DNA from: Kineococcus radiotolerans SRS30216 = ATCC BAA-149 | GTDB lineage: Bacteria; Actinomycetota; Actinomycetes; Actinomycetales; Kineococcaceae | Assembly: GCF_000017305.1 (NCBI RefSeq) | Contig: NC_009664.2 | Location: forward strand, 3,360,001-3,392,000 | Direction: 5' to 3' | DNA: 32,000 bases | Shown: positions 2,398-32,000 of the stretch, piece after piece | Layout of the letters: the number at the start of each line of letters is the position of its first letter | How positions within the stretch are numbered: position 1 is the stretch's first letter | Notes under the pieces: model-generated | Seen by the model: only the letters and a program-made list of their open reading frames with translations | What the model was told of the DNA's origin: nothing | Database searches by the model: none | Made by a program: the position numbers and the translations under genes

Positions 2398-3022
2398 TCC
2401 CCCCGGCGCCGCCGACCACCACCACGACGGCGGCGGCCACGGCGACGAGCGCGCCCCCGCCCCCGGAGGACGTGGGGTCGACGGGATCGGCGGCGGAGGC
2501 GGTGGACGTGCTCGCGGACGGGGCGGGTCCCCCCGCGGTCGTGGTGGGGCTCGCGGTGGGGCCCTCGGCCGCGGCGGACGCCGCGGTGAACGTGAAGGAC
2601 CCCGAGACCGGGTGCCCGTCGGAGGACGTCACCCGCCACTGGACCTCGTAGGTCCCCGCCGGCCGCTCGCCGGTGACGGCCTGGGTCACGGTGTCGTCCA
2701 CGACCCGCGCCTCGCCGGTGGAGACGACACCGGCGGGGCCGGTGACCTGCACCCGGGTCCCGAGGGCCAGCGGTGGGGACGACATCGTCAGGACGACCGC
2801 GTCGGGGGCGACGGCGACGCCGGCCCCGTCGGCGGGGTCGGTGGACTCGAGGCGGTCGTGGGCCGCGGCCGGACCCGCACCCACCACCGGCAGCACCGCC
2901 GGGGCCAACAGTCCGCCGAGCAGGAGCGCGGCCGCCCGGCGCCGCGCGGGCGGGCGGGCCGCCGGCCGGACGAGCGGGCGGCGGGCGGGACGGGCGGCGG
3001 GGCGGTCGGTGGGCGTCGGCAC
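2369..3022 (-). CDS. CopC-domain (copper-binding) protein with signal peptide and C-terminal membrane anchor
   Basis: After the signal, 'AAAHDRLESTDPADGA...YEVQWRVTSSDGHPVSGSFTFT' matches the CopC/YobA fold signature (H-x-L-x-S-x-P ... W-R-V-x-S-x-DGH). The C-terminus is an Ala/Pro/Thr/Ser linker, then 'ALVAVAAAVVVVVGGAGGIIGYRRRRG', a TM helix plus basic stop-transfer. GTG start. Confidence 0.85.
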   Translation of the reverse strand: MPTPTDRPAARPARRPLVRPAARPPARRRAAALLLGGLLAPAVLPVVGAGPAAAHDRLESTDPADGAGVAVAPDAVVLTMSSPPLALGTRVQVTGPAGVVSTGEARVVDDTVTQAVTGERPAGTYEVQWRVTSSDGHPVSGSFTFTAASAAAEGPTASPTTTAGGPAPSASTSTASAADPVDPTSSGGGGALVAVAAAVVVVVGGAGGIIGYRRRRG

Positions 3023-24516: not shown

Positions 24517-24548
24517 TGGAGGACACGGGAAGGAGGTGGTCCGAACAC

Positions 24549-24587
24549 ATGGTTTCTCATCGGACGCGTGAGGTGGCTGCCCGCTAG
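24549..24587 (+). CDS. Candidate 12-codon upstream ORF / leader peptide (MVSHRTREVAAR*)
   Basis: The ATG at 24549 is preceded by GGAAGGAGGTGG (24527-24539), a long match to the anti-SD, although the AGGAGG core is 12 nt from the ATG. It sits in the lowest-GC patch of the spacer. The TAG stop lies in the loop of a GCTGC/GCAGC hairpin. Confidence 0.25.
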   Translation: MVSHRTREVAAR

Positions 24588-24802
24588 CAGCTGCGTGCAG
24601 GACGCGGACCGCTCTGGTCGCCCCGCGCAGCGCGGCGAATCCACGGCAGTCACCGGGTCCCCGGGCGCCGGGTTGTCCACCGGCCCACGTCGACGGTCTC
24701 GTGACCGGCGGCGCGGAAGCGCCCGGGGACTTCTCCCTGTCCGGGCGCGGGAACCCCGTGCTCGACGGGAGGTGGCTCCGGGCCACCACCTACCCTGGAC
24801 CG

Positions 24803-26107
24803 GTGAGCGCACCGCCGGCCGGTCCCGGCCCCGTCCGACCCCGCCGCCGGTTCCTCGTCGACACCACCCCGCTGCGCGAGGTCCCCGCCTTCCGCGGCCT
24901 GTGGATCGGGCAGTCCCTGGCCGCGGTGGGCACCCAGCTCACCGTCGTCACCGTGGGGTTGCAGGTCTACGCGCTGACCTCCTCCACGTTCGCCGTCGGC
25001 CTCGTCGGGATCTTCGCCCTCGTCCCGCTCGTCGCCCTCGGGCTCTACGGCGGGTCCCTCGTCGACGCCCACGACCGGCGGCGCGTGGCGCTGCTCGCCT
25101 CCCTCGCCCTGTGGGTGCTCTCCCTCGCGGTCGCCGCCCAGGCGTGGGCGCACCTGGACTCCGTCGGCCTGCTCTACGGGCTCGTCGCGCTGCAGAGCGC
25201 CGCCTTCGCCGTCAACAACCCCGCCCGCTCGGCCATCGTCCCCGGGATCGTGCCCGCCGCGATGCTGCCCGCCGCGAACGCGCTGTCGGGGATGACCAAC
25301 GCCATCGCCCTCACCCTCGGGCCGCTGCTGGCCGGGCTGCTGGTGGGGACCTGGGGGTTCCAGGCCGCCTACACCGTGGACGCCGTGACCTTCGTGGCGG
25401 CGCTGGTCGGCGTGCAGCGCCTGCCGGCCATGCCGCCGGAGGTCTTGGCGGGCTCGCAGCGCCCGGGGCTGCGGTCGGTGCTGGAGGGGATCCGGTTCCT
25501 GGGCACCCGCCCCAACGTCCGGATGACGTTCCTCGTCGACCTCTGCGCCATGGTCCTCGCGATGCCCCGCGTCCTCTACCCGGCGCTGGGCGCCGCCGAG
25601 CTCGGCGGCGGGGCCCGCACCGTCGGCCTCCTCGGCGCCGGGTTCGCCGCCGGGTCCGTGCTGGCCGGGCTGTTCTCCGGCCCGCTGGGCGGGGTGCGGC
25701 GCCAGGGGGCCGTCGTCGTCGGCTGCATCGCCGTCTACGGCGCCTCGGTCGCCGGGTTCGGCCTCGTCCTGGTGCTCGCCCCCGCGGGCCAGACCGGGAA
25801 GCTCGCCCTCTGCGTCGCGCTGCTCGCGGTCTCCGGCGCCGCGGACGCGGTGAGCTCGGTCTTCCGCGGGACCATCCTGCAGGTCGCCACCCCCGACGCG
25901 CTGCGCGGGCGCCTGCAGGGGGTGTTCATCGTCGTCGTCGCCGGCGGACCCCGCCTCGGCGACCTCGTCCTCGGCTCCACGGCCTCGGCGGTGGGGGAGG
26001 GGCTCGCCGCGCTCGCGGGCGGGACGGCCTGCGTCGTCGCCGTGCTGGCCCTCGCCCGCGGCCAGCGGGGGTTCGTGCGCTACGACGCGCACGACCCCCG
26101 GCCCTGA
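24803..26107 (+). CDS. MFS transporter (EntS/MFS_3-like efflux type)
   Basis: 'RRRFLVDTTPLREVPAFRGLWIGQSLAAVGTQLTVVTVGLQVYALT...' is the typical MFS_3 N-terminus, with 12 hydrophobic segments. The start is taken as GTG 24803; the ORF opens at GTG 24701, which cannot be excluded. Confidence 0.88.
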   Translation: MSAPPAGPGPVRPRRRFLVDTTPLREVPAFRGLWIGQSLAAVGTQLTVVTVGLQVYALTSSTFAVGLVGIFALVPLVALGLYGGSLVDAHDRRRVALLASLALWVLSLAVAAQAWAHLDSVGLLYGLVALQSAAFAVNNPARSAIVPGIVPAAMLPAANALSGMTNAIALTLGPLLAGLLVGTWGFQAAYTVDAVTFVAALVGVQRLPAMPPEVLAGSQRPGLRSVLEGIRFLGTRPNVRMTFLVDLCAMVLAMPRVLYPALGAAELGGGARTVGLLGAGFAAGSVLAGLFSGPLGGVRRQGAVVVGCIAVYGASVAGFGLVLVLAPAGQTGKLALCVALLAVSGAADAVSSVFRGTILQVATPDALRGRLQGVFIVVVAGGPRLGDLVLGSTASAVGEGLAALAGGTACVVAVLALARGQRGFVRYDAHDPRP

Positions 26108-26108
26108 C

Positions 26109-27461
26109 TCAGCCCCTGACCCGGGCGTACTCCGCCAGGGCGACCTCCCGCTCGTGGGCGTGGTCGACGATGCGCTCGGGGTAGCCGTGGGCGTAGCCGT
26201 CGGCCGCCTCCCAGGGCGTGTGCACCGACTTCCCCGGGAGGTGGCGCAGCTCGGGGACGAAGCGGCGGACGTAGTCGCCGTCGGGGTCGAACCTCTGACC
26301 CTGGGTGACGGGGTTGAAGACCCGGAAGAACGGCGAGGCGTCGGTGCCGGAGCCCGCGACCCACTGCCAGCCGTGCATGTTGCTGGCCAGGTCCGCGTCG
26401 CGCAGCCAGTGCATGAACTCCCGCCCGCCGTGCTGCCACTCCACGTGCAGGTCCTTGACGAGGAAGCTCGCGGTGATCATCCGGACCCGGTTGTGCACCC
26501 ACCCGACGGCGCGCATCTGGCGCATCCCGGCGTCGACGATCGGGAAGCCGGTGCGGCCCTCGGCCCAGGCCCGGAACTGCTCCCCGGGTTCGGCGTAGCG
26601 CAGCCCGGCCAGCTGCGGCTTGTAGTACTCCCGGGCCGAGTCGGGGCGGTGCCACAGCACGTCGGCGTAGAAGTCGCGCCAGCACAGCTCGGTGGCGTAC
26701 GTCTCGGCCCCCTTCGAGGACTGCCCGCGCAGGGCCGCCAGCAGCGTCCGGGGGTGCAGCTCGCCCCACTTCAGCGCGTGCGAGAGCTGGGAGGTCCCGT
26801 CGCGGTCGGGGCGGTCGCGGTCCCCGTCGTAGTCGGCGAGGGCGTGGTCGAGGAAGCGGTGCCAGCGCTCGTGCGCGGCGTCCTCCCCGGCCTCGGGCAG
26901 GGTCAGCCCGCCGAGGTCGGGTTCGTCGGGCCAGTGCCCGCCGTCGACGCCCTCGCCGTCCCCGACCCAGCGCACCGCGCCGGGGGAGTCGGCCGGGGCG
27001 GGCCAGCCGTGCGCGCGCCAGGCCCGGGAGAACGGCGTGAACACTTGGAACGGGCTCCCGGACCCGGTGCGCAGGGTCCCCGGGCCGATCGCGTAGGGCG
27101 TGCCGGTCCGGACCAGCTCGCGCCCGCCCGCCGCGAGCGCGCGCCCGACGGCGTCGTCGCGGCGCCGCCCGAGGGGGCCGGCGTCGGCGGTGACGTGCAC
27201 CCGGGACGCCCCGATCCGGGCGGCCACGCGGTCCACGACCACCGCCGGGTCGCCGCGCTCGACGACGAGGGCCCCGCCCAGCGCGGCGTCCAGCGAGCGC
27301 AGCGAGCGCAGCAGGTAGGTGCGCCGGACGTCGCCGGAGGGACCCCACAGGGCGGGGTCGATCACGAAGAGGGGCAGGACGTCGCCGTCGGCGGCCGCGG
27401 CCAGCAGGGCCGGGTGGTCGCTGAGCCGGAGGTCGCGGCGGAACCACAGGACGCTGGTCAC
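26109..27461 (-). CDS. phr: Deoxyribodipyrimidine (CPD) photolyase
   Basis: 'VLWFRRDLRLSDHPAL' is the photolyase N-terminal domain. 'TGFPIVDAGMRQMRAVGWVHNRVRMITASFLVKDL...WQWVAGSGTDASPFFRVFNP' is the FAD-binding domain. GTG start. Confidence 0.95.
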   Translation of the reverse strand: MTSVLWFRRDLRLSDHPALLAAAADGDVLPLFVIDPALWGPSGDVRRTYLLRSLRSLDAALGGALVVERGDPAVVVDRVAARIGASRVHVTADAGPLGRRRDDAVGRALAAGGRELVRTGTPYAIGPGTLRTGSGSPFQVFTPFSRAWRAHGWPAPADSPGAVRWVGDGEGVDGGHWPDEPDLGGLTLPEAGEDAAHERWHRFLDHALADYDGDRDRPDRDGTSQLSHALKWGELHPRTLLAALRGQSSKGAETYATELCWRDFYADVLWHRPDSAREYYKPQLAGLRYAEPGEQFRAWAEGRTGFPIVDAGMRQMRAVGWVHNRVRMITASFLVKDLHVEWQHGGREFMHWLRDADLASNMHGWQWVAGSGTDASPFFRVFNPVTQGQRFDPDGDYVRRFVPELRHLPGKSVHTPWEAADGYAHGYPERIVDHAHEREVALAEYARVRG

Positions 27462-27499
27462 CCGCGGACGCTACCGGGGGCCCCGCCGCGGCGCGCGGC

Positions 27500-27536
27500 G
27501 GCGGAGGCGGGTGCGCGGTGGCGGAGGCAGGGTGCG
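27500..27536. repeat. Imperfect 16/17-nt direct repeat in the phr-ideR divergent spacer
   Basis: GGCGGAGGCGGGTGCG (27500-27515) and GGCGGAGGCAGGGTGCG (27520-27536). The period is 20 bp, with a one-base indel. Confidence 0.7.
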
Positions 27537-27556
27537 ACCACCGGTCCCGATGGCCG

Positions 27557-28252
27557 ATGATGGGCGCCGTGAGCGATCTCATCGACACCACCGAGATGTA
27601 CCTCAAGACGGTCTTCGAACTGGAAGAGGAAGGCATCGTGCCGATGCGCGCTCGCATCGCCGAGCGGCTGCACCACTCCGGGCCGACGGTCTCGCAGACG
27701 GTGGCGCGGATGGAGCGCGACGGGCTCCTGCACGTGGGCACCGACCGCCGGCTGGAGCTGACGGAGGCGGGCGAGGCGAAGGCCATGCGCGTCATGCGCA
27801 AGCACCGCCTCACCGAGCGCCTCCTCACCGACGTCATCGGGCTGGAGTGGAGCCTGGTCCACGAGGAGGCCTGCCGCTGGGAGCACGTCGTCTCCGAGGA
27901 GGTGGAGAAGCGGCTCGTGGCGATCCTGGACCACCCCCACTCCTCGCCGTACGGCAACCCCATCCCCGGTCTGGCCGAGCTGGGGGAGGACTGCGCGAGC
28001 GAGGACTTCCGCTCGGGCGTGCAGCCGCTGACCAGCCCCGGGCTGGAGGGCCGCGCGGTCGTGGTGCGCCGCCTCGGGGAGCCGCTGCAGACCGACGTGC
28101 CGCTGCTGGCCCGCCTGCACGCCGCGGGCCTGCTGCCCGGGGCCGAGGTCGTCGTGACGTCGGTCTCGCCCGGTGTCGCGGTGTCGGTCGGGGGAGCGGT
28201 GGTGGACCTGACGTCCACCGAGGCGTCGCACGTCTTCGTCGCGCCCGCCTGA
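27557..28252 (+). CDS. ideR: Iron-dependent repressor IdeR (DtxR family)
   Basis: 'DLIDTTEMYLKTVFELEEEGIVPMRARIAERLHHSGPTVSQTVARMERDGLL...MRKHRLTERLLTDVIGLEWSLVHEEACRWEHVVSEEVE...SSPYGNPIPG' is nearly collinear with mycobacterial IdeR as I recall it, and about 231 aa. The start is ATG 27557 or 27560. Confidence 0.95.
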   Translation: MMGAVSDLIDTTEMYLKTVFELEEEGIVPMRARIAERLHHSGPTVSQTVARMERDGLLHVGTDRRLELTEAGEAKAMRVMRKHRLTERLLTDVIGLEWSLVHEEACRWEHVVSEEVEKRLVAILDHPHSSPYGNPIPGLAELGEDCASEDFRSGVQPLTSPGLEGRAVVVRRLGEPLQTDVPLLARLHAAGLLPGAEVVVTSVSPGVAVSVGGAVVDLTSTEASHVFVAPA

Positions 28253-28494: not shown

Positions 28495-28705
28495 TGTGCG
28501 CGTGGACGCCCTCACGTGGACGCCGAGCCCTGCCACCACGTCGAGGTCCCCCGAGAACATTCATGGCAGGGGTGGGGGAACCACGTTTCCCGGGCGACGC
28601 CGGACCACCAGGTCCGGTCGAGCCCTTGGGGTGAAGCCGGTGCGAACCGGCCGGGCGATACTCCCGCCCGAACCCGACAGCTCACCTCGCAGGCGTCGGA
28701 GAGGC
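28495..28705 (+). promoter_or_regulatory. ydaO/yuaA-type cyclic-di-AMP riboswitch
   Basis: Conserved blocks recalled from the ydaO motif are present in order: GAGCC...GGGGTGGGGGAACCAC, GGGGTGAAGCC, GGGCGATA, and CCCGCCCGAACCCGACAGCTCACCTCGCAGGCGT. The element sits immediately upstream of a cell-wall hydrolase gene, the typical actinobacterial context. Boundaries are approximate. Confidence 0.75.
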
Positions 28706-28712
28706 CACCACC

Positions 28713-29606
28713 TTGACGACTCGCGTCCAGGCGCGCCACCGCGCCTCCGCTCGTGTTCGCACCCCCCTGACCGACCTGTCCGACAGCGTCGCCCGCACCG
28801 CCGGCGGCGCCGCCCGCACCGGTGCCGTCGTCGCCGCCGCCGGCGGGCTCCTCGTCTCCGTCGCCCTCCCCGCGGGCGCCGCGACGAGCGCCGCCCCCGC
28901 CGCCGTCGGCTCCACCCTCGCCTCGGCGGCCACCGCGGTCCCCGCGGCCTTCGGCACCACCGCCGCCGGCGTCGTCTCCGCCCCGGCCACGGCGACGGTC
29001 CTCTCGACCACCGCCACCTTCGCCGCCGCCCCGGCCCCCGCGCCGGTCGTCGTGGCCCCCGTCGTCGCCGCCCCGGCCATCGAGCGGGCGACCCGCACCT
29101 CCGACGCCGTCCCGGTCGTGGCCTCCAGCGTCGCCGCGCCCGCCCTCGTGGTCGAGCCCGCCCCGGTGGTCGCGGCCGTCGTCGCGGCCCCCGCCCCCGC
29201 TCCGGCCCCCGAGCCGGCTCCGGCCCCCGCGCCGGCCCCCGCCCCGCTGGGTCAGCGCATCCTCGAGGTGGCCGACGACTACGCCGGCGTCCCCTACGTC
29301 TACGGCGGCACCACCCCCTCCGGGTTCGACTGCTCCGGCTTCACCAGCTACGTGTACCGGCAGGTCGGCGTCGAGATCCCGCGCACCGCCAACGCCCAGA
29401 AGCAGGCCGCGGCCGGCATCTCCCGCGGCAACGCCGTCCCCGGCGACCTCGTGTTCTTCAGCAACGGCTCCGGCCGCGCCTACCACGTGGGGATCTACGC
29501 GGGCGGCAACACCATGTGGGACGCCCCCCGCGCCGGCAAGCCCGTCCAGCTGCGGGCGATCTGGTCCGACGCCGTCACCTTCGGGCGGCTCGCGCCCACG
29601 GCCTGA
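28713..29606 (+). CDS. Secreted NlpC/P60-family peptidoglycan endopeptidase
   Basis: TTG start 8 nt after GGAGAGG. There is an N-terminal signal/anchor region and a long Ala/Pro-rich linker (…APAPAPEPAPAPAPAPAP). The C-terminal catalytic domain is 'GVPYVYGGTTPSGFDCSGFTSYVYRQVGVEIPRTA...GDLVFF...HVGIY', with the NlpC/P60 Cys-His core. Confidence 0.9.
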   Translation: MTTRVQARHRASARVRTPLTDLSDSVARTAGGAARTGAVVAAAGGLLVSVALPAGAATSAAPAAVGSTLASAATAVPAAFGTTAAGVVSAPATATVLSTTATFAAAPAPAPVVVAPVVAAPAIERATRTSDAVPVVASSVAAPALVVEPAPVVAAVVAAPAPAPAPEPAPAPAPAPAPLGQRILEVADDYAGVPYVYGGTTPSGFDCSGFTSYVYRQVGVEIPRTANAQKQAAAGISRGNAVPGDLVFFSNGSGRAYHVGIYAGGNTMWDAPRAGKPVQLRAIWSDAVTFGRLAPTA

Positions 29607-29612
29607 CCCGCT

Positions 29613-29628
29613 CCACCCCGGCGGGTGG
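29613..29628 (+). terminator. Short GC hairpin after the NlpC/P60 gene
   Basis: CCACCC cggc GGGTGG, 7 nt after the stop, followed by gatt. Confidence 0.4.
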
Positions 29629-29645
29629 GATTCACCGGAAAGTTG

Positions 29646-29675
29646 CTGACTCCCCCACCCCTCCCGACGTAGGGT
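29646..29675 (+). promoter_or_regulatory. Predicted promoter of the His-rich sORF / HNH transcript
   Basis: -35 CTGACT (29646-29651), an 18-bp spacer, then -10 TAGGGT (29670-29675, TAnnnT). A 10-bp hairpin follows (GGGTGCCGTC/GACGGCACCC, 29672-29697), then the SD. Confidence 0.35.
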
Positions 29676-29709
29676 GCCGTCAACGACGACGGCACCCCAC
29701 GGAGGCCCG

Positions 29710-29886
29710 ATGACCAGGCACCACGGAGGCACGGCCCCCGTGGTGCCCCACGCCCTCCAGCACGCGGTGCACCACCACTGCGTGCACCACCACCATGTGC
29801 ACGTCGTCGCTCTCAGAGGCGCCCTCCCCACCGGGGACGGCGCCTCTCGTCGTCTCAGGAGGTGGATGTGCGCACTCTCGTGCTGA
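29710..29886 (+). CDS. Candidate histidine/cysteine-rich small protein (58 aa)
   Basis: The ATG lies 4 nt after GGAGG (29701-29705). The product is 'MTRHHGGTAPVVPHALQHAVHHHCVHHHHVHVVALRGALPTGDGASRRLRRWMCALSC'. Hand counts give GC at codon position 3 of 50/58 and at position 2 of 30/58, which is the coding-like asymmetry. The 3' end overlaps the HNH start by 19-25 nt. No recognisable family. Confidence 0.4.
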   Translation: MTRHHGGTAPVVPHALQHAVHHHCVHHHHVHVVALRGALPTGDGASRRLRRWMCALSC

Positions 29887-30362
29887 ACGCCGGCTTCGAG
29901 CCGCTCGCGGTGGTCTCCTTCCGCAGGGCCCTCGTCCTCGTCCTCGCCGGGAAGGCGTCGGTGGTCCTCGCCGACCCCGACCCCGTCGTCGGCGCGACGA
30001 TGAGCCTGGAACGGCCGTCGGTCATCCTGCTGACCCGCTACGTCCGCGTCCCCCGCGGGCAGGTGGTCCCGGTCAGCCGGCGCGGCGTCCTGCGCCGCGA
30101 CCACCAGCGCTGCGCCTACTGCCGCGGGCACGCCACGACCATCGACCACGTCCTGCCGCGCAGCCGCCGGGGGCCGGACACCTGGGAGAACCTCGTGGCC
30201 TGCTGCGTGCGGTGCAACAACGCCAAGGGCGACCGCACCCCCGAGGAGATGGGCTGGAGCATGCCCTTCCGGCCCACCGCGCCCCGCGGGGCGTCCTGGG
30301 CGGTGCGGGGCGCCGAGCAGCCCGACCCGCGCTGGGACGAGTTCCTGGCCGCGGCCGCCTGA
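29868..30362 (+). CDS. Small HNH endonuclease (His-Me finger, Zn-ribbon type)
   Basis: GTG 29868 lies 5 nt after AGGAGG; GTG 29862 is an alternative. 'RTLVLNAGFEPL...RRDHQRCAYCRGHATTIDHVLPRSRRGPDTWENLVACCVRCNNAKGDRTPEE' contains the HNH motif with CxxC...CxxC. Confidence 0.9.
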   Translation: MRTLVLNAGFEPLAVVSFRRALVLVLAGKASVVLADPDPVVGATMSLERPSVILLTRYVRVPRGQVVPVSRRGVLRRDHQRCAYCRGHATTIDHVLPRSRRGPDTWENLVACCVRCNNAKGDRTPEEMGWSMPFRPTAPRGASWAVRGAEQPDPRWDEFLAAAA

Positions 30363-30374
30363 GGCCCGAAAACC

Positions 30375-30400
30375 GCGAGCCCCCCGGGGGCCCGGCTCGC
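30375..30400 (+). terminator. GC hairpin after the HNH gene
   Basis: GCGAGCC (30375-30381) pairs with GGCTCGC (30394-30400) around a C5G5 core, 13 nt after the stop. The next gene starts 13 nt later, so termination may be partial. Confidence 0.35.
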
Positions 30401-30412
30401 TAGCGTCGGGAC

Positions 30413-32000
30413 GTGCCCCACCGCCCGGCCGGACGTCCCGGCCTGACCCCCCGGCGGCTCGCGGGCCCCCTGACGAGCACCGCGGTGGCCCTCGGCGTCG
30501 CCGCGGCCACCGCGGAGACCCTCGGCGCCGTCGTCACCGGGCGCATCGCCGGGAACCCCACCGCGGGGCTGCTCGCCGTCCTCGCCGCGCTCGTCGTCGG
30601 GGCCAGCGCCCTCGACACCCTCGGGCGGGTGGCGCTCGCCGCCGCCGTCGGGCGGGCCGAGGGCGCGCTGCGCGCCGACCTGCTCGCCGCCGCCTTCGCC
30701 CAGCCCGTCCCCGCCCTGGCCGAGCAGGCCGTCGGGGAGGTCATCGACCGCGTCGACGACGACCCCCGCCAGCTCGCCCGGCTGCTGCGCGAAGCGGTGT
30801 GGAACCTCGGGCGCGGGCTCGTCCGCTCCCTCATCGGCTGGGTCGTGGCCGGTCTCGTGTGGTGGCCGGCGTGGATCGCGTTCCCCGTCGTCGCCGTCGT
30901 CGTCTGGCTGTCCGTGCGCCGGCTCACCCCGCTGCTGGTGCAGCGCAAGGTCGCCGAGGAGGTCGCCTGGACCGACCACGCCGCCCAGCTGGAGGAGGCC
31001 GTCGCCGGTCGCGACGACGTCCGCTCCAGCCTGGGGCAGCCGCACGTCGTGCGCCGCTACGCCCAGCTCGCCGCCGGCGTCCTCACCCGCGTCCGCGCCA
31101 CCAGCGACCTCGCCGCCACCGTCGCCCGCCGGACCACCCTCGTGCTGGCCCTCGTCTGCTCCGCGCTCGTCGTCGGCGGGACCGCGCTCGTCGCCGACGG
31201 CCGGCTCGGCGTCGCGCAGCTCGTCACCGTCTGGCTGCTGTCCGCGGGCTTCGCCGGCGACCTCACCCAGATCAGCGAGCGCCTCCCCGAGGTCCAGGCC
31301 GGCTTCGGCGCGGTGCAGCGCATCCGCGCGCTGCTGCAGGCCCCGTCCGAGCCCGTGGGCGGGGCGCCCGTCCCCCCGGGCCCGCTGGGCGTGGCGTTCC
31401 GGGGGGTCCGCTTCGCCCACCCCGGCGGGTTCGCGCTGCGCGACGTGGAGCTGGAGGTCCCCACCGGGACGACCTGCGCCCTCGTCGGGCGCAGCGGCTC
31501 GGGCAAGTCCACGCTGGCCGCGCTGCTCTCCCGCGCCCTGGAACCACCGCCCGGTGCGGTGCTCCTCGGCGGCGCCGACGTCACCGGGCTCGACCTGCAC
31601 CAGCTGCGGCGGGCCGTGGGGGTCGTCACCCAGCGCACCGAGCTGCTGGCCGGGACCCTGCGCCGCAACATCACCCTCGACGCCGACGTCGCGCCCGAGC
31701 GGGTCGACGCCGCCGTGGACTCCCTGGGCCTGCGCGACTGGGTCGCGGGGCTGCCCGCCGGCCTGGAGACCCGCCTCGGCCCCGGCGGGACCACCCTCTC
31801 CGCCGGGGAGGAGCAGCTCGTCGCCTTCGCCCGCCTCCTCGTGCGCGACGTGCGCGTCGTCGTCCTCGACGAGGCCACCGCCCGGATGGACCCCGTCACC
31901 GAGCACCGCGTCACCGCCGCCGCGCAGCGCCTGCTCGCCGGCCGCACCGGCCTGCTCATCGCCCACCGGCTCTCCACCACCGCCCGCGCCGACGGGGTCG
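30413..32000 (+). CDS. Fused ABC exporter (N-terminal transmembrane domain + C-terminal ATPase), 3' end outside the window
   Basis: This ORF is not in the track because it has no stop in the window. My translation from GTG 30413 (in-frame TAG at 30401) gives a hydrophobic ABC_membrane region. It is followed by Walker A 'GRSGSGKST', Q-loop 'VVTQ', signature 'LSAGEEQ', Walker B 'VVVLDEAT' and H-loop 'IAHR'. Confidence 0.9.
   Translation, partial: MPHRPAGRPGLTPRRLAGPLTSTAVALGVAAATAETLGAVVTGRIAGNPTAGLLAVLAALVVGASALDTLGRVALAAAVGRAEGALRADLLAAAFAQPVPALAEQAVGEVIDRVDDDPRQLARLLREAVWNLGRGLVRSLIGWVVAGLVWWPAWIAFPVVAVVVWLSVRRLTPLLVQRKVAEEVAWTDHAAQLEEAVAGRDDVRSSLGQPHVVRRYAQLAAGVLTRVRATSDLAATVARRTTLVLALVCSALVVGGTALVADGRLGVAQLVTVWLLSAGFAGDLTQISERLPEVQAGFGAVQRIRALLQAPSEPVGGAPVPPGPLGVAFRGVRFAHPGGFALRDVELEVPTGTTCALVGRSGSGKSTLAALLSRALEPPPGAVLLGGADVTGLDLHQLRRAVGVVTQRTELLAGTLRRNITLDADVAPERVDAAVDSLGLRDWVAGLPAGLETRLGPGGTTLSAGEEQLVAFARLLVRDVRVVVLDEATARMDPVTEHRVTAAAQRLLAGRTGLLIAHRLSTTARADGV

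Follow-up and report, generated by a model that had tools for sequence, protein, structure and literature searches.

The locus examined here raises the question of why a 58-codon, histidine-rich short open reading frame (sORF) lies between an NlpC/P60 gene and a small HNH endonuclease gene of Kineococcus radiotolerans SRS30216, and runs into the start of the latter. It is contained in a stretch of 32,000 nt from contig NC_009664.2 (forward-strand positions 3,360,001 to 3,392,000), which we call the window and in whose numbering all positions are given unless a relative is named. A preliminary description had read the sORF as the gene of a His/Cys-rich partner of the nuclease. Our comparison of the locus with its relatives leads us instead to regard the 58-codon frame as, on balance, a probable translated leader ORF (upstream ORF, uORF) rather than the gene for a functional protein, and we moderately favour a model in which translation of this leader would melt a terminator-derived hairpin lying within it and couple ribosomes to the HNH gene. 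All conclusions are based on sequence comparison, with a sampling that spans two orders.

The Kineococcus comparison set consisted of the window and 21 other loci, giving 22 sequences. One scan of reference genomes supplied 80 loci, from 21 Kineococcus, several Kineosporiaceae-like or unclassified actinobacteria and many Microbacteriaceae, and six further loci were added through exact protein look-up; individual loci are cited by number (L012 and so on). The HNH protein of the window is 90-94% identical to proteins of Kineococcus species. An NlpC/P60 gene was found upstream of the HNH gene in each locus for which the upstream gene was checked, and the genes 3' of the HNH gene differ among relatives and often lie on the opposite strand. 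Because the order NlpC/P60-sORF-HNH is kept while the downstream genes vary, the conserved unit is, judging from gene order, the sORF together with the HNH gene. An operon with the ABC transporter that begins at 30416 was ruled out, since the genes downstream of the unit differ in relatives and are often on the other strand.

In the window the frame opens with ATG 29710 and would encode MTRHHGGTAPVVPHALQHAVHHHCVHHHHVHVVALRGALPTGDGASRRLRRWMCALSC, a product with 3 Cys and with 12 His among its first 31 residues, including the runs HHH and HHHH. Its GC content by codon position is 0.74, 0.52 and 0.86, which reproduces the counts of 30/58 at position 2 and 50/58 at position 3 previously taken as a coding-like asymmetry. 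Each sequence feature listed in the preliminary description, including the composition of the frame, its ATG and its GGAGG Shine-Dalgarno (SD) sequence, was found in its place. What did not hold up was conservation of the peptide. The amino-acid sequence of the sORF is without purifying selection in Kineococcus: variable sites are spread evenly over the three codon positions (21/17/20), and 6 synonymous-only codon columns stand against 27 amino-acid-changing ones, no different from two shifted frames. Both observations fit a leader and not a protein, so that the comparison of synonymous with nonsynonymous change goes against a functional product. In the Kineococcus peptide alignment, M1 is the sole invariant column upstream of the hairpin; the invariant P40, G44, A45 and C54, with no His among them, all fall in the stretch from the hairpin to the HNH start, and the one Cys column without variation derives from the fixed sequence at the HNH start. 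Towards the C-terminus, the conserved part (..VVALRGAxPxGDGASRRLRRWMCA..) results from reading hairpin, HNH SD and HNH start as codons, and these elements together dictate the last 25 residues. No His or Cys position is conserved across lineages. The number of His per sORF ranges from 3 to 12 in Kineococcus, is 7-8 in Clavibacter, 0-3 in most other Microbacteriaceae (sORF consensus M..sR.IQTVDaRALFFIRh..) and 1 in Spongisporangium; His richness is thus, among the sequences compared, a trait of few lineages and not of the family. The peptide matched no Pfam or NCBIfam family, and a profile search of 5.8 billion proteins returned five unnamed clusters.

There is good comparative evidence that the frame is read by ribosomes, since the distances between start codon and hairpin in Kineococcus take nine values (81, 105, 114, 117, 126, 132, 135, 144 and 180 nt) that are all multiples of 3, for which the probability by chance is roughly (1/3)^8. 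This region is highly variable in both sequence and length. Across the 22 Kineococcus sequences the start codon changes only between ATG and GTG, and in most loci a G-rich sequence resembling an SD, GGAGG or nearly so, precedes it by 4-8 nt (the site is weaker in L005, L020 and L021), with GGGAGAG at the equivalent place in Microbacteriaceae. A +2 insertion just 5' of the hairpin is offset by +1 in its loop in both L002 and L013, and in clade D (eight genomes) the first 20 codons are 70% identical, as against 82% for HNH third codon positions, with zero indels. The AUG of the Microbacteriaceae sORF is more conserved than the bases that pair with it. With its start codon kept and its frame maintained through many changes of length in Kineococcus, the reading frame proposed earlier is borne out, even as its product is not.

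The hairpin crossed by the sORF is conserved above the neutral rate, mean nucleotide identity of hairpin plus SD in Kineococcus being 0.845 versus 0.716 for HNH third codon positions. It reads AGAGGCGCC...GGCGCCUCU followed by CGUCGUC in Kineococcus, and a graded sequence series joins it through intermediate forms (GGCGCCUUUGUCGUCC in L022, GGCGCCUUUCGUCGUCC in L081) to its counterpart in Microbacteriaceae, AGGCACCGUC...GACGGUGCCUUUUUGUUU, which is a canonical intrinsic terminator with compensatory base-pair changes and a U tract. Judged by this series, the window hairpin is a GC-rich homologue of the Microbacteriaceae terminator. RNAalifold recovers it from the Kineococcus sequences, in which it is nearly invariant and so without useful covariation; the covariation evidence comes from Microbacteriaceae only. 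The position of the sORF stop codon follows this element closely. Among 35 Microbacteriaceae loci with ORFs of 30-42 codons, the stop lies at -1 of the terminator stem in 19, the AG or GA of the stop being the first stem bases, at +13 to +16 (loop or 3' arm) in 13, at -3 or -4 in two and beyond the hairpin in one, hence never more than 4 nt upstream of the stem. In Kineococcus, Kineosporiaceae and relatives the sORF runs through the hairpin. Over all loci examined the stop is at, inside or beyond the hairpin in all but two, which place it 3-4 nt before the stem. In attenuation of the Escherichia coli pyrBI and pyrE type, the leader ORF spans the attenuator and a closely following ribosome blocks folding of the terminator. 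The sORF likewise covers a terminator hairpin, and translation to or through the stem would block its folding, a view that matches a stop codon locked at -1, inside or beyond the stem; unlike pyrBI and pyrE, the locus has no U-rich pause region. Coupling in actinobacteria is, to our knowledge, poorly characterised.

At its 3' end the sORF is tied to the start of the HNH gene. This start is most likely GTG 29868 (MRTLVLNAG...) and not 29862, because an SD lies 5 nt upstream, an ATG is aligned with it in L012, L014 and L021, and homologues measure 164 aa. The two genes therefore overlap by 19 nt; of the 19-25 nt given in the preliminary description the overlap as such is real, and the start at 29862 behind its upper value is the one not favoured. 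The sORF stop falls 16 nt into the HNH gene in the window and most Kineococcus. Stop and start codons overlap as GTGA in L016 and L018, and in L022, L056 and L081, which belong to three genera, the sORF ends in TGATG on the HNH ATG, with hairpin-to-start spacers of about 10, 50 and 95 nt, respectively. L012 and L014 (about 2863-3006) and L084 (about 480-700) have the sORF in frame with the HNH gene and no stop between them. A 10-nt insertion follows the hairpin in L012 and L014; translation from the sORF start would in these three loci yield an N-terminally extended, His-containing HNH protein. The hairpin is 20 nt from the HNH start in Kineococcus, which leaves no room for a separate HNH promoter. 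With the end of the sORF tied to the HNH start in several genera, the geometry of translational coupling noted previously is sound. Coupled overlapping gene pairs of the mok/hok type, with TGATG or GTGA junctions, have been reviewed (PMC12548453). The present unit resembles them in having the upstream stop on, or a few nt past, the downstream start on the same strand, and in a downstream gene that may be harmful if over-expressed; unlike in mok/hok, the upstream ORF is a non-conserved peptide with a strong internal hairpin, and no antisense RNA partner is known. A programmed frameshift from sORF to HNH was rejected, as 29862-29886 contains no slippery site and the TGATG lineages have no overlap.

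We propose that a single promoter, with its -10 element at 29670-29675, would give an mRNA carrying the sORF, the terminator-derived hairpin (29815-29847) and the HNH gene. If the sORF were left untranslated, the hairpin and surrounding pairing would hold HNH expression low, through an RNA polymerase stop or pause, an occluded HNH ribosome-binding region, or both. Ribosomes starting at ATG 29710 would cross the His-codon block, melt the hairpin and terminate 16 nt inside the HNH gene, leaving the HNH SD open next to GTG 29868, and HNH protein would then be made by translational coupling or reinitiation, dependent on and limited by translation of the leader. In the ancestral-looking Microbacteriaceae arrangement, a ribosome that has reached the stop codon would sit over the terminator's 5' arm and favour read-through, and in Kineococcus the system would have been compacted into direct translational coupling. 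We infer the direction of this control, with translation turning HNH on and not repressing it, and likewise its level (transcription, translation or both) and the physiological signal. A plausible purpose would be to hold a potentially harmful nuclease low and tied to translation.

Several observations weigh against this model. In L028, L032 and L038 the sORF has a long out-of-frame overlap with the HNH gene and its stop is not at the HNH start, and in L086 it stops 70 nt before the HNH gene. Microbacteriaceae have about 90 nt, together with another conserved hairpin, between the sORF terminator and the HNH gene, with neither a stop/start coupling nor a frame relation between the two, and the sORF could there be an independent small transcript. 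The HNH gene has a good SD of its own and so may not need the sORF. Long open frames come cheaply in DNA of 75% GC. The U tract has decayed in the window, where a simple scan calls no terminator in 29400-30500, and no conserved antiterminator partner was seen for either hairpin arm.

The nature of the HNH protein adds a further dimension. For its HNH domain, the best NCBIfam (E = 1e-12) and PDB (TbaIscB, 8e-12) matches are to IscB and Cas9d. The N-terminus, MRTLVLNAGFEPLAVVSFRRALVLVLAGKASV (residues 1-70, 29868-30080), scored 39 (BLOSUM62) when aligned to the TbaIscB PLMP domain, compared with 18.9 +/- 3.5 for shuffles (0/500), and HMMER, hhalign and BLASTP did not find this homology significant (hhalign and BLASTP against the PLMP domain of DtIsrB). 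An AlphaFold model, built on a shallow alignment, had a pLDDT of 44 and was unusable for fold comparison. Taken together, the sequence suggests an IshB-like protein (PLMP + HNH), IshB having been described as PLMP + HNH in about 180 aa (PMC10734217, PMC11610941). Every lineage examined has a conserved hairpin some 20 nt 5' of the HNH start. Microbacteriaceae and some other actinobacteria (L023-L082) have in this region a separate stem-loop, NCCUGS-A[AGCCG]U-SCAGGN, about 20-37 nt before the HNH start and ahead of the HNH SD (e.g. L053, 2966-2982), with compensatory changes in 5/7 pairs and an invariant loop; the stem has no Rfam match and is absent from Kineococcus.

The separation seen in Microbacteriaceae, where the sORF has a strong terminator of its own, followed by about 90 nt and a hairpin before the HNH gene, could also mean that the sORF is an independent small gene whose overlap in Kineococcus reflects genome compaction without regulatory meaning, an HNH gene that always has its own SD being in line with this. 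We consider such independence quite unlikely: the sORF-HNH order is kept across two orders while downstream genes vary, TGATG or GTGA junctions arose in several genera, L002 and L013 recover the frame 3' of the hairpin through compensating indels, a promoter for the HNH gene alone would not fit in Kineococcus, and the peptide is not conserved as a protein. This last point also weighs on the proposal of the preliminary description, a 58-aa micro-protein that binds metal or the HNH enzyme as chaperone, inhibitor or antitoxin, which we regard as very unlikely. In all likelihood the sORF is translated, its product is His-rich with 3 Cys, it overlaps a nuclease gene, and one homologue (L083) is annotated as a gene in its NCBI record. 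The N-termini of sORFs from Kineosporiaceae other than Kineococcus (L081, 3783-4001; L084; L086) moreover share the motif xDAxRSVaGAL with synonymous codon differences, which hints at a constraint at the peptide level in these organisms. Yet the Kineococcus peptide is without purifying selection and without conserved ligands, its sole invariant Cys comes from the HNH start region, its C-terminal 25 residues are set by hairpin, SD and HNH start, its length ranges from 48 to 83 aa, and it is fused to HNH in L012, L014 and L084. A metallochaperone or other His/Cys-rich partner is accordingly not what the alignments describe, and for an antitoxin-toxin pair the geometry fits, but the peptide is not conserved and belongs to no Pfam or NCBIfam family (PADLOC was not scanned). 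A structured non-coding RNA, either an sRNA or an omega-RNA-like partner of the IshB-like protein, with the ORF incidental or secondary, would account for conservation at the nucleotide and not the amino-acid level, for the strong fold of the leader (z = -5.2), for hairpins that are conserved and in relatives show compensatory changes, and for the canonical terminator that closes the unit in Microbacteriaceae. It would also suit a protein that looks like PLMP plus an IscB-type HNH domain, given that the PLMP domain of IsrB contacts the SD-carrying terminal omega-RNA hairpin (PMC9581776). Lengths in multiples of 3 behind an ATG or GTG start have no explanation by RNA alone, however. In Microbacteriaceae, conservation of the AUG exceeds that of the bases opposite it, and the position of the stop codon is fixed relative to the terminator stem. 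The central part of the RNA varies extremely in length (81-180 nt), neither HEARO nor any other Rfam family matches the leader in the window and 11 related loci, and synteny is fixed with no sign of mobility. An RNA acting in place of the leader ORF is therefore quite improbable in our assessment.

Two further explanations start from the histidine codons and the repeat that encodes them. A run of His codons might sense a shortage of charged tRNA-His, with a stall at 29767-29802 altering hairpin/SD pairing and thereby HNH expression. Twelve His codons with runs of three and four would suit such a sensor, as would their location just 5' of the hairpin in Kineococcus, Clavibacter, L022 and L056, and the polycysteine precedent in which a codon tract pairs with a downstream SD (bioRxiv 10.1101/834739). 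In minimum free energy (MFE) folds of 19/22 Kineococcus sequences, CCACCACC (His codons) pairs with the HNH SD region GGAGGUGG, through CCACC(ACC) or CCGCC, with seemingly matched changes (GGUGC with GCACC in L004, GGUGU with ACACC in L012 and L014). The energies of these duplexes are nevertheless those of dinucleotide shuffles of the C-rich upstream sequence (z -2.5 to +0.9, mostly near 0), His richness is no family trait, the regulated gene encodes a nuclease and not a step of the His pathway, there is no match to the Rfam His_leader family, and the extra His codons of the window stem from a private 15-bp duplication. We thus regard histidine sensing as unlikely, and a role of the His codons either as a sensor or as an anti-SD is, from the folds and alignments, unproven. 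The H-V and V-H pattern of the peptide follows from CACGUG and GUGCAC palindromes, so that its His richness may be a by-product of sequence at the RNA level. At the DNA level, the 15-bp tandem repeat (2.4 copies, 85% matches) places GTGCAC-N9-GTGCAC twice in the window against 0.01 expected, clade D has CACGTG palindromes in the same region, and the inverted repeat at 29668-29701 covers the -10 element and start site, a classical operator position; the GTGCAC array or this repeat could on these grounds be binding sites for a regulator. The 15-bp spacing noted in the preliminary description is real, whereas its reading as a protein-binding array fails on the private nature of the duplication: the triple GTGCAC is missing from the other 21 Kineococcus loci, which have one copy or different palindromes, the array is explained by a recent 15-bp duplication, and the promoter repeat is conserved only in its core. 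A DNA-level element is for these reasons extremely unlikely. Loading of Rho on a C-rich leader was also considered and set aside as uninformative, the C/G ratio of the leader (1.5-1.85) being similar to that of neighbouring coding strands.

If the sORF is a translated leader, as we propose, it can be set beside two systems in which consecutive codons for one amino acid matter. In mycobacterial polycysteine sORFs (Ms5788A), the Cys tract pairs with the downstream SD (bioRxiv 10.1101/834739). The unit described here is similarly an actinobacterial short ORF rich in consecutive codons for one amino acid just 5' of the regulated gene, with a codon tract predicted to pair with the downstream SD in an unusually stable leader and with control that would act through ribosome occupancy. 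It differs in that polycysteine sORFs are leaderless, the present one having an SD and a 5' untranslated region (the -10 element ends 34 nt before the ATG), in that the codons are His and the target is a nuclease unrelated to that amino acid, in that the sORF crosses a terminator-derived hairpin and overlaps its target gene, and in a tract-SD pairing no better than chance. The hisL-type attenuator (RF00514) has a leader ORF with tandem His codons followed by a terminator-type hairpin (PMC9413887), and the sORF shares both the His-codon run and the hairpin. Unlike hisL, it gave no Rfam match even at E <= 10 in 29560-29920, and the gene downstream is an HNH nuclease and not a his gene; its hairpin lacks a U tract (the tail is CUCGUCGUCU) and none in 29400-30500 was called a terminator. 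In further contrast to hisL, folds show no antiterminator, that is, no upstream segment complementary to either hairpin arm, the sORF reads through the hairpin instead of stopping before it, and beyond Kineococcus and Clavibacter most homologous sORFs lack the His run.

A comparison with OMEGA systems leads to a possible addition to the leader model. Like OMEGA IshB, the HNH protein appears to combine a PLMP-like N-terminus with an IscB-type HNH domain in about 165-180 aa, the PLMP homology being weakly supported, and immediately 5' of its gene the same strand encodes a structured RNA whose last hairpin adjoins the SD of that gene. The IsrB precedent is a contact between the PLMP domain and the final hairpin of the omega-RNA, the hairpin containing the SD for IsrB itself (PMC9581776). 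Unlike an omega-RNA, the upstream RNA at this locus is probably translated, has a hypervariable centre and matches no HEARO or omega-RNA model, and unlike in OMEGA systems the synteny with NlpC/P60 is fixed in all examined loci, with no IS200/605 features. The roughly 190-nt leader might also serve as an RNA partner of the IshB-like protein, whose PLMP-like N-terminus would bind the pre-HNH hairpin, although we hold this to be improbable. The bound hairpin would then be the terminator-derived one in the window and the covarying A[AGCCG]U stem in Microbacteriaceae, and binding would have one of two outcomes: the nuclease regulates itself, or RNA and protein form a domesticated nuclease complex, fixed in the chromosome, with an RNA that is also translated.

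Leader ORFs that control genes by ribosome traffic are already known, and we would place the sORF-HNH unit among them, as a further form of ribosome-dependent leader control and not as a system of a new class. We found no description of it in the literature or among RNA families: for this unit, Rfam gave no match in either the window or 11 related loci when scanned at the gathering threshold, nor in 29560-29920 with the cutoff relaxed to E <= 10. The previously undescribed sORF family is phylogenetically broad, spanning Kineosporiales and Micrococcales, and wherever the upstream gene was checked it is flanked by NlpC/P60 on one side and a small HNH gene on the other. The arrangement of its parts is exceptionally easy to read, with the stop locked to the foot of a terminator in one lineage and read-through of a degenerate terminator plus overlap with the nuclease start in another, and it thereby offers a natural series in which to follow the change of a transcription attenuator into a translational coupler at high GC content. 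The case is also a caution that CAC-rich RNA can by itself give rise to a conspicuous His-rich peptide. The regulated gene would belong to the little-studied PLMP + HNH (IshB-like) group related to IscB, the ancestor of Cas9, and through this grouping the expression of the HNH gene, and a possible binding of the protein to its own leader RNA, would be of wider interest.

The promoter postulated earlier (CTGACT-18-TAGGGT) is present and its hexamers are conserved among Kineococcus clades, although a generic sigma-70 scan does not flag it. CTGAC(T/G)-17/18-TA(C/G)NNT is kept in four of the five clades (A, B, C and E), the upstream hexamer lying 17-18 nt ahead of the -10, and the -10-like hexamer is found in all clades, as part of GACGTA(C/G)NNT in 22/22 sequences; Microbacteriaceae have TAnnnT at the equivalent place. 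We infer a transcription start near 29682. The inverted repeat around the -10 (14 nt, 93% complementary; free energy, dG, of the core -14.9) had been described as a 5' hairpin. The repeat is real, but it overlaps the -10 element, and with a start near 29682 its left arm would be absent from the RNA, so that it would not form a 5' RNA hairpin; taken by itself, the repeat may act as an operator in DNA or as a stem at the 5' end of the RNA. Relatives keep only the core GCCGTC..GACGGC in part.

The two further hairpins reported to overlap the frame were both recovered as inverted repeats (29717-29747 and 29815-29847), and all three repeats, including that at 29668-29701, have arms of 14-15 nt with 93% complementarity. 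RNA from 29676-29890 folds much better than its shuffles (0/200 as stable). The hairpin at 29717-29747 corresponds in relative position to P1, a conserved hairpin (AUCC..GGAU) of Microbacteriaceae sORFs. There, codons 7-11 form the AUCC-loop-GGAU structure, with a loop, A[AACCG]U, similar to the one in the pre-HNH hairpin. Microbacteriaceae sORFs (e.g. L053, 2797-2895) also contain a conserved rare Ile codon, AUA (..FIR..), within a CAUAcGGC motif that pairs with the start region GCCnnAUG of the same sORF, and the L081 sORF has a cluster of rare A-ending codons (UUA, GUA, CCA, CUA, CUA) where Kineococcus has His codons.

Table 1. Positions of the main features of the sORF-HNH locus within the window.
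Feature	Position	Strand	Remarks
NlpC/P60 gene	28713-29606	+	
-35-like hexamer CTGACT	29646-29651	+	Conserved in Kineococcus clades A, B, C and E
Inverted repeat CGTAGGGTGCCGTC / GACGGCACCCCACG	29668-29701	.	Overlaps -10 and presumed transcription start
-10-like hexamer TAGGGT	29670-29675	+	Actinobacterial TANNNT type; identified by conservation
SD of the sORF, GGAGG	29701-29705	+	4 nt ahead of ATG
Putative leader sORF	29710-29886	+	58 codons plus TGA (29884-29886); conserved start and frame
Hairpin within the sORF	29717-29747	+	Codons 3-13; dG -26.3, z = -4.5
His-codon block	29767-29802	+	15-bp tandem repeat with three GTGCAC palindromes
Terminator-derived hairpin	29802-29854	+	Upper stem 29815-29847; CGUCG flanks 29802-29809 and 29848-29854 form the lower stem
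SD of the HNH gene, GGAGG	29858-29862	+	5 nt before GTG 29868; conserved in all Kineococcus
HNH endonuclease gene	29868-30362	+	164 aa; Pfam HNH families match

Upstream of the unit, the terminator previously assigned to the NlpC/P60 gene could not be substantiated, the hairpin after this gene being no more stable than its shuffles. A c-di-AMP (ydaO-type) riboswitch (28539-28710, +) lies immediately 5' of the NlpC/P60 gene; the same pairing occurs in L081, L016, L028 and L012 and is frequent where the riboswitch scan was run. Farther upstream in the window are a DtxR/IdeR-family metal-dependent regulator (27518-28252, +) and a DNA photolyase (26109-27470, -), neighbours that recur in Spongisporangium and Curtobacterium. 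Ms1 (6S-like) RNA was considered as an identity for the leader and ruled out: its conserved neighbours, a HAD hydrolase and an oxidoreductase (PMC9130861), are not HNH genes, and there is no Rfam match. A strong match to the actinobacterial sRNA family Ms_IGR-5 was found at 24523-24738 (+; 92 bits, E = 1.6e-19), partly within the 5' end of an MFS transporter ORF (24572-26107); it may represent a 5' leader instead of a free sRNA.

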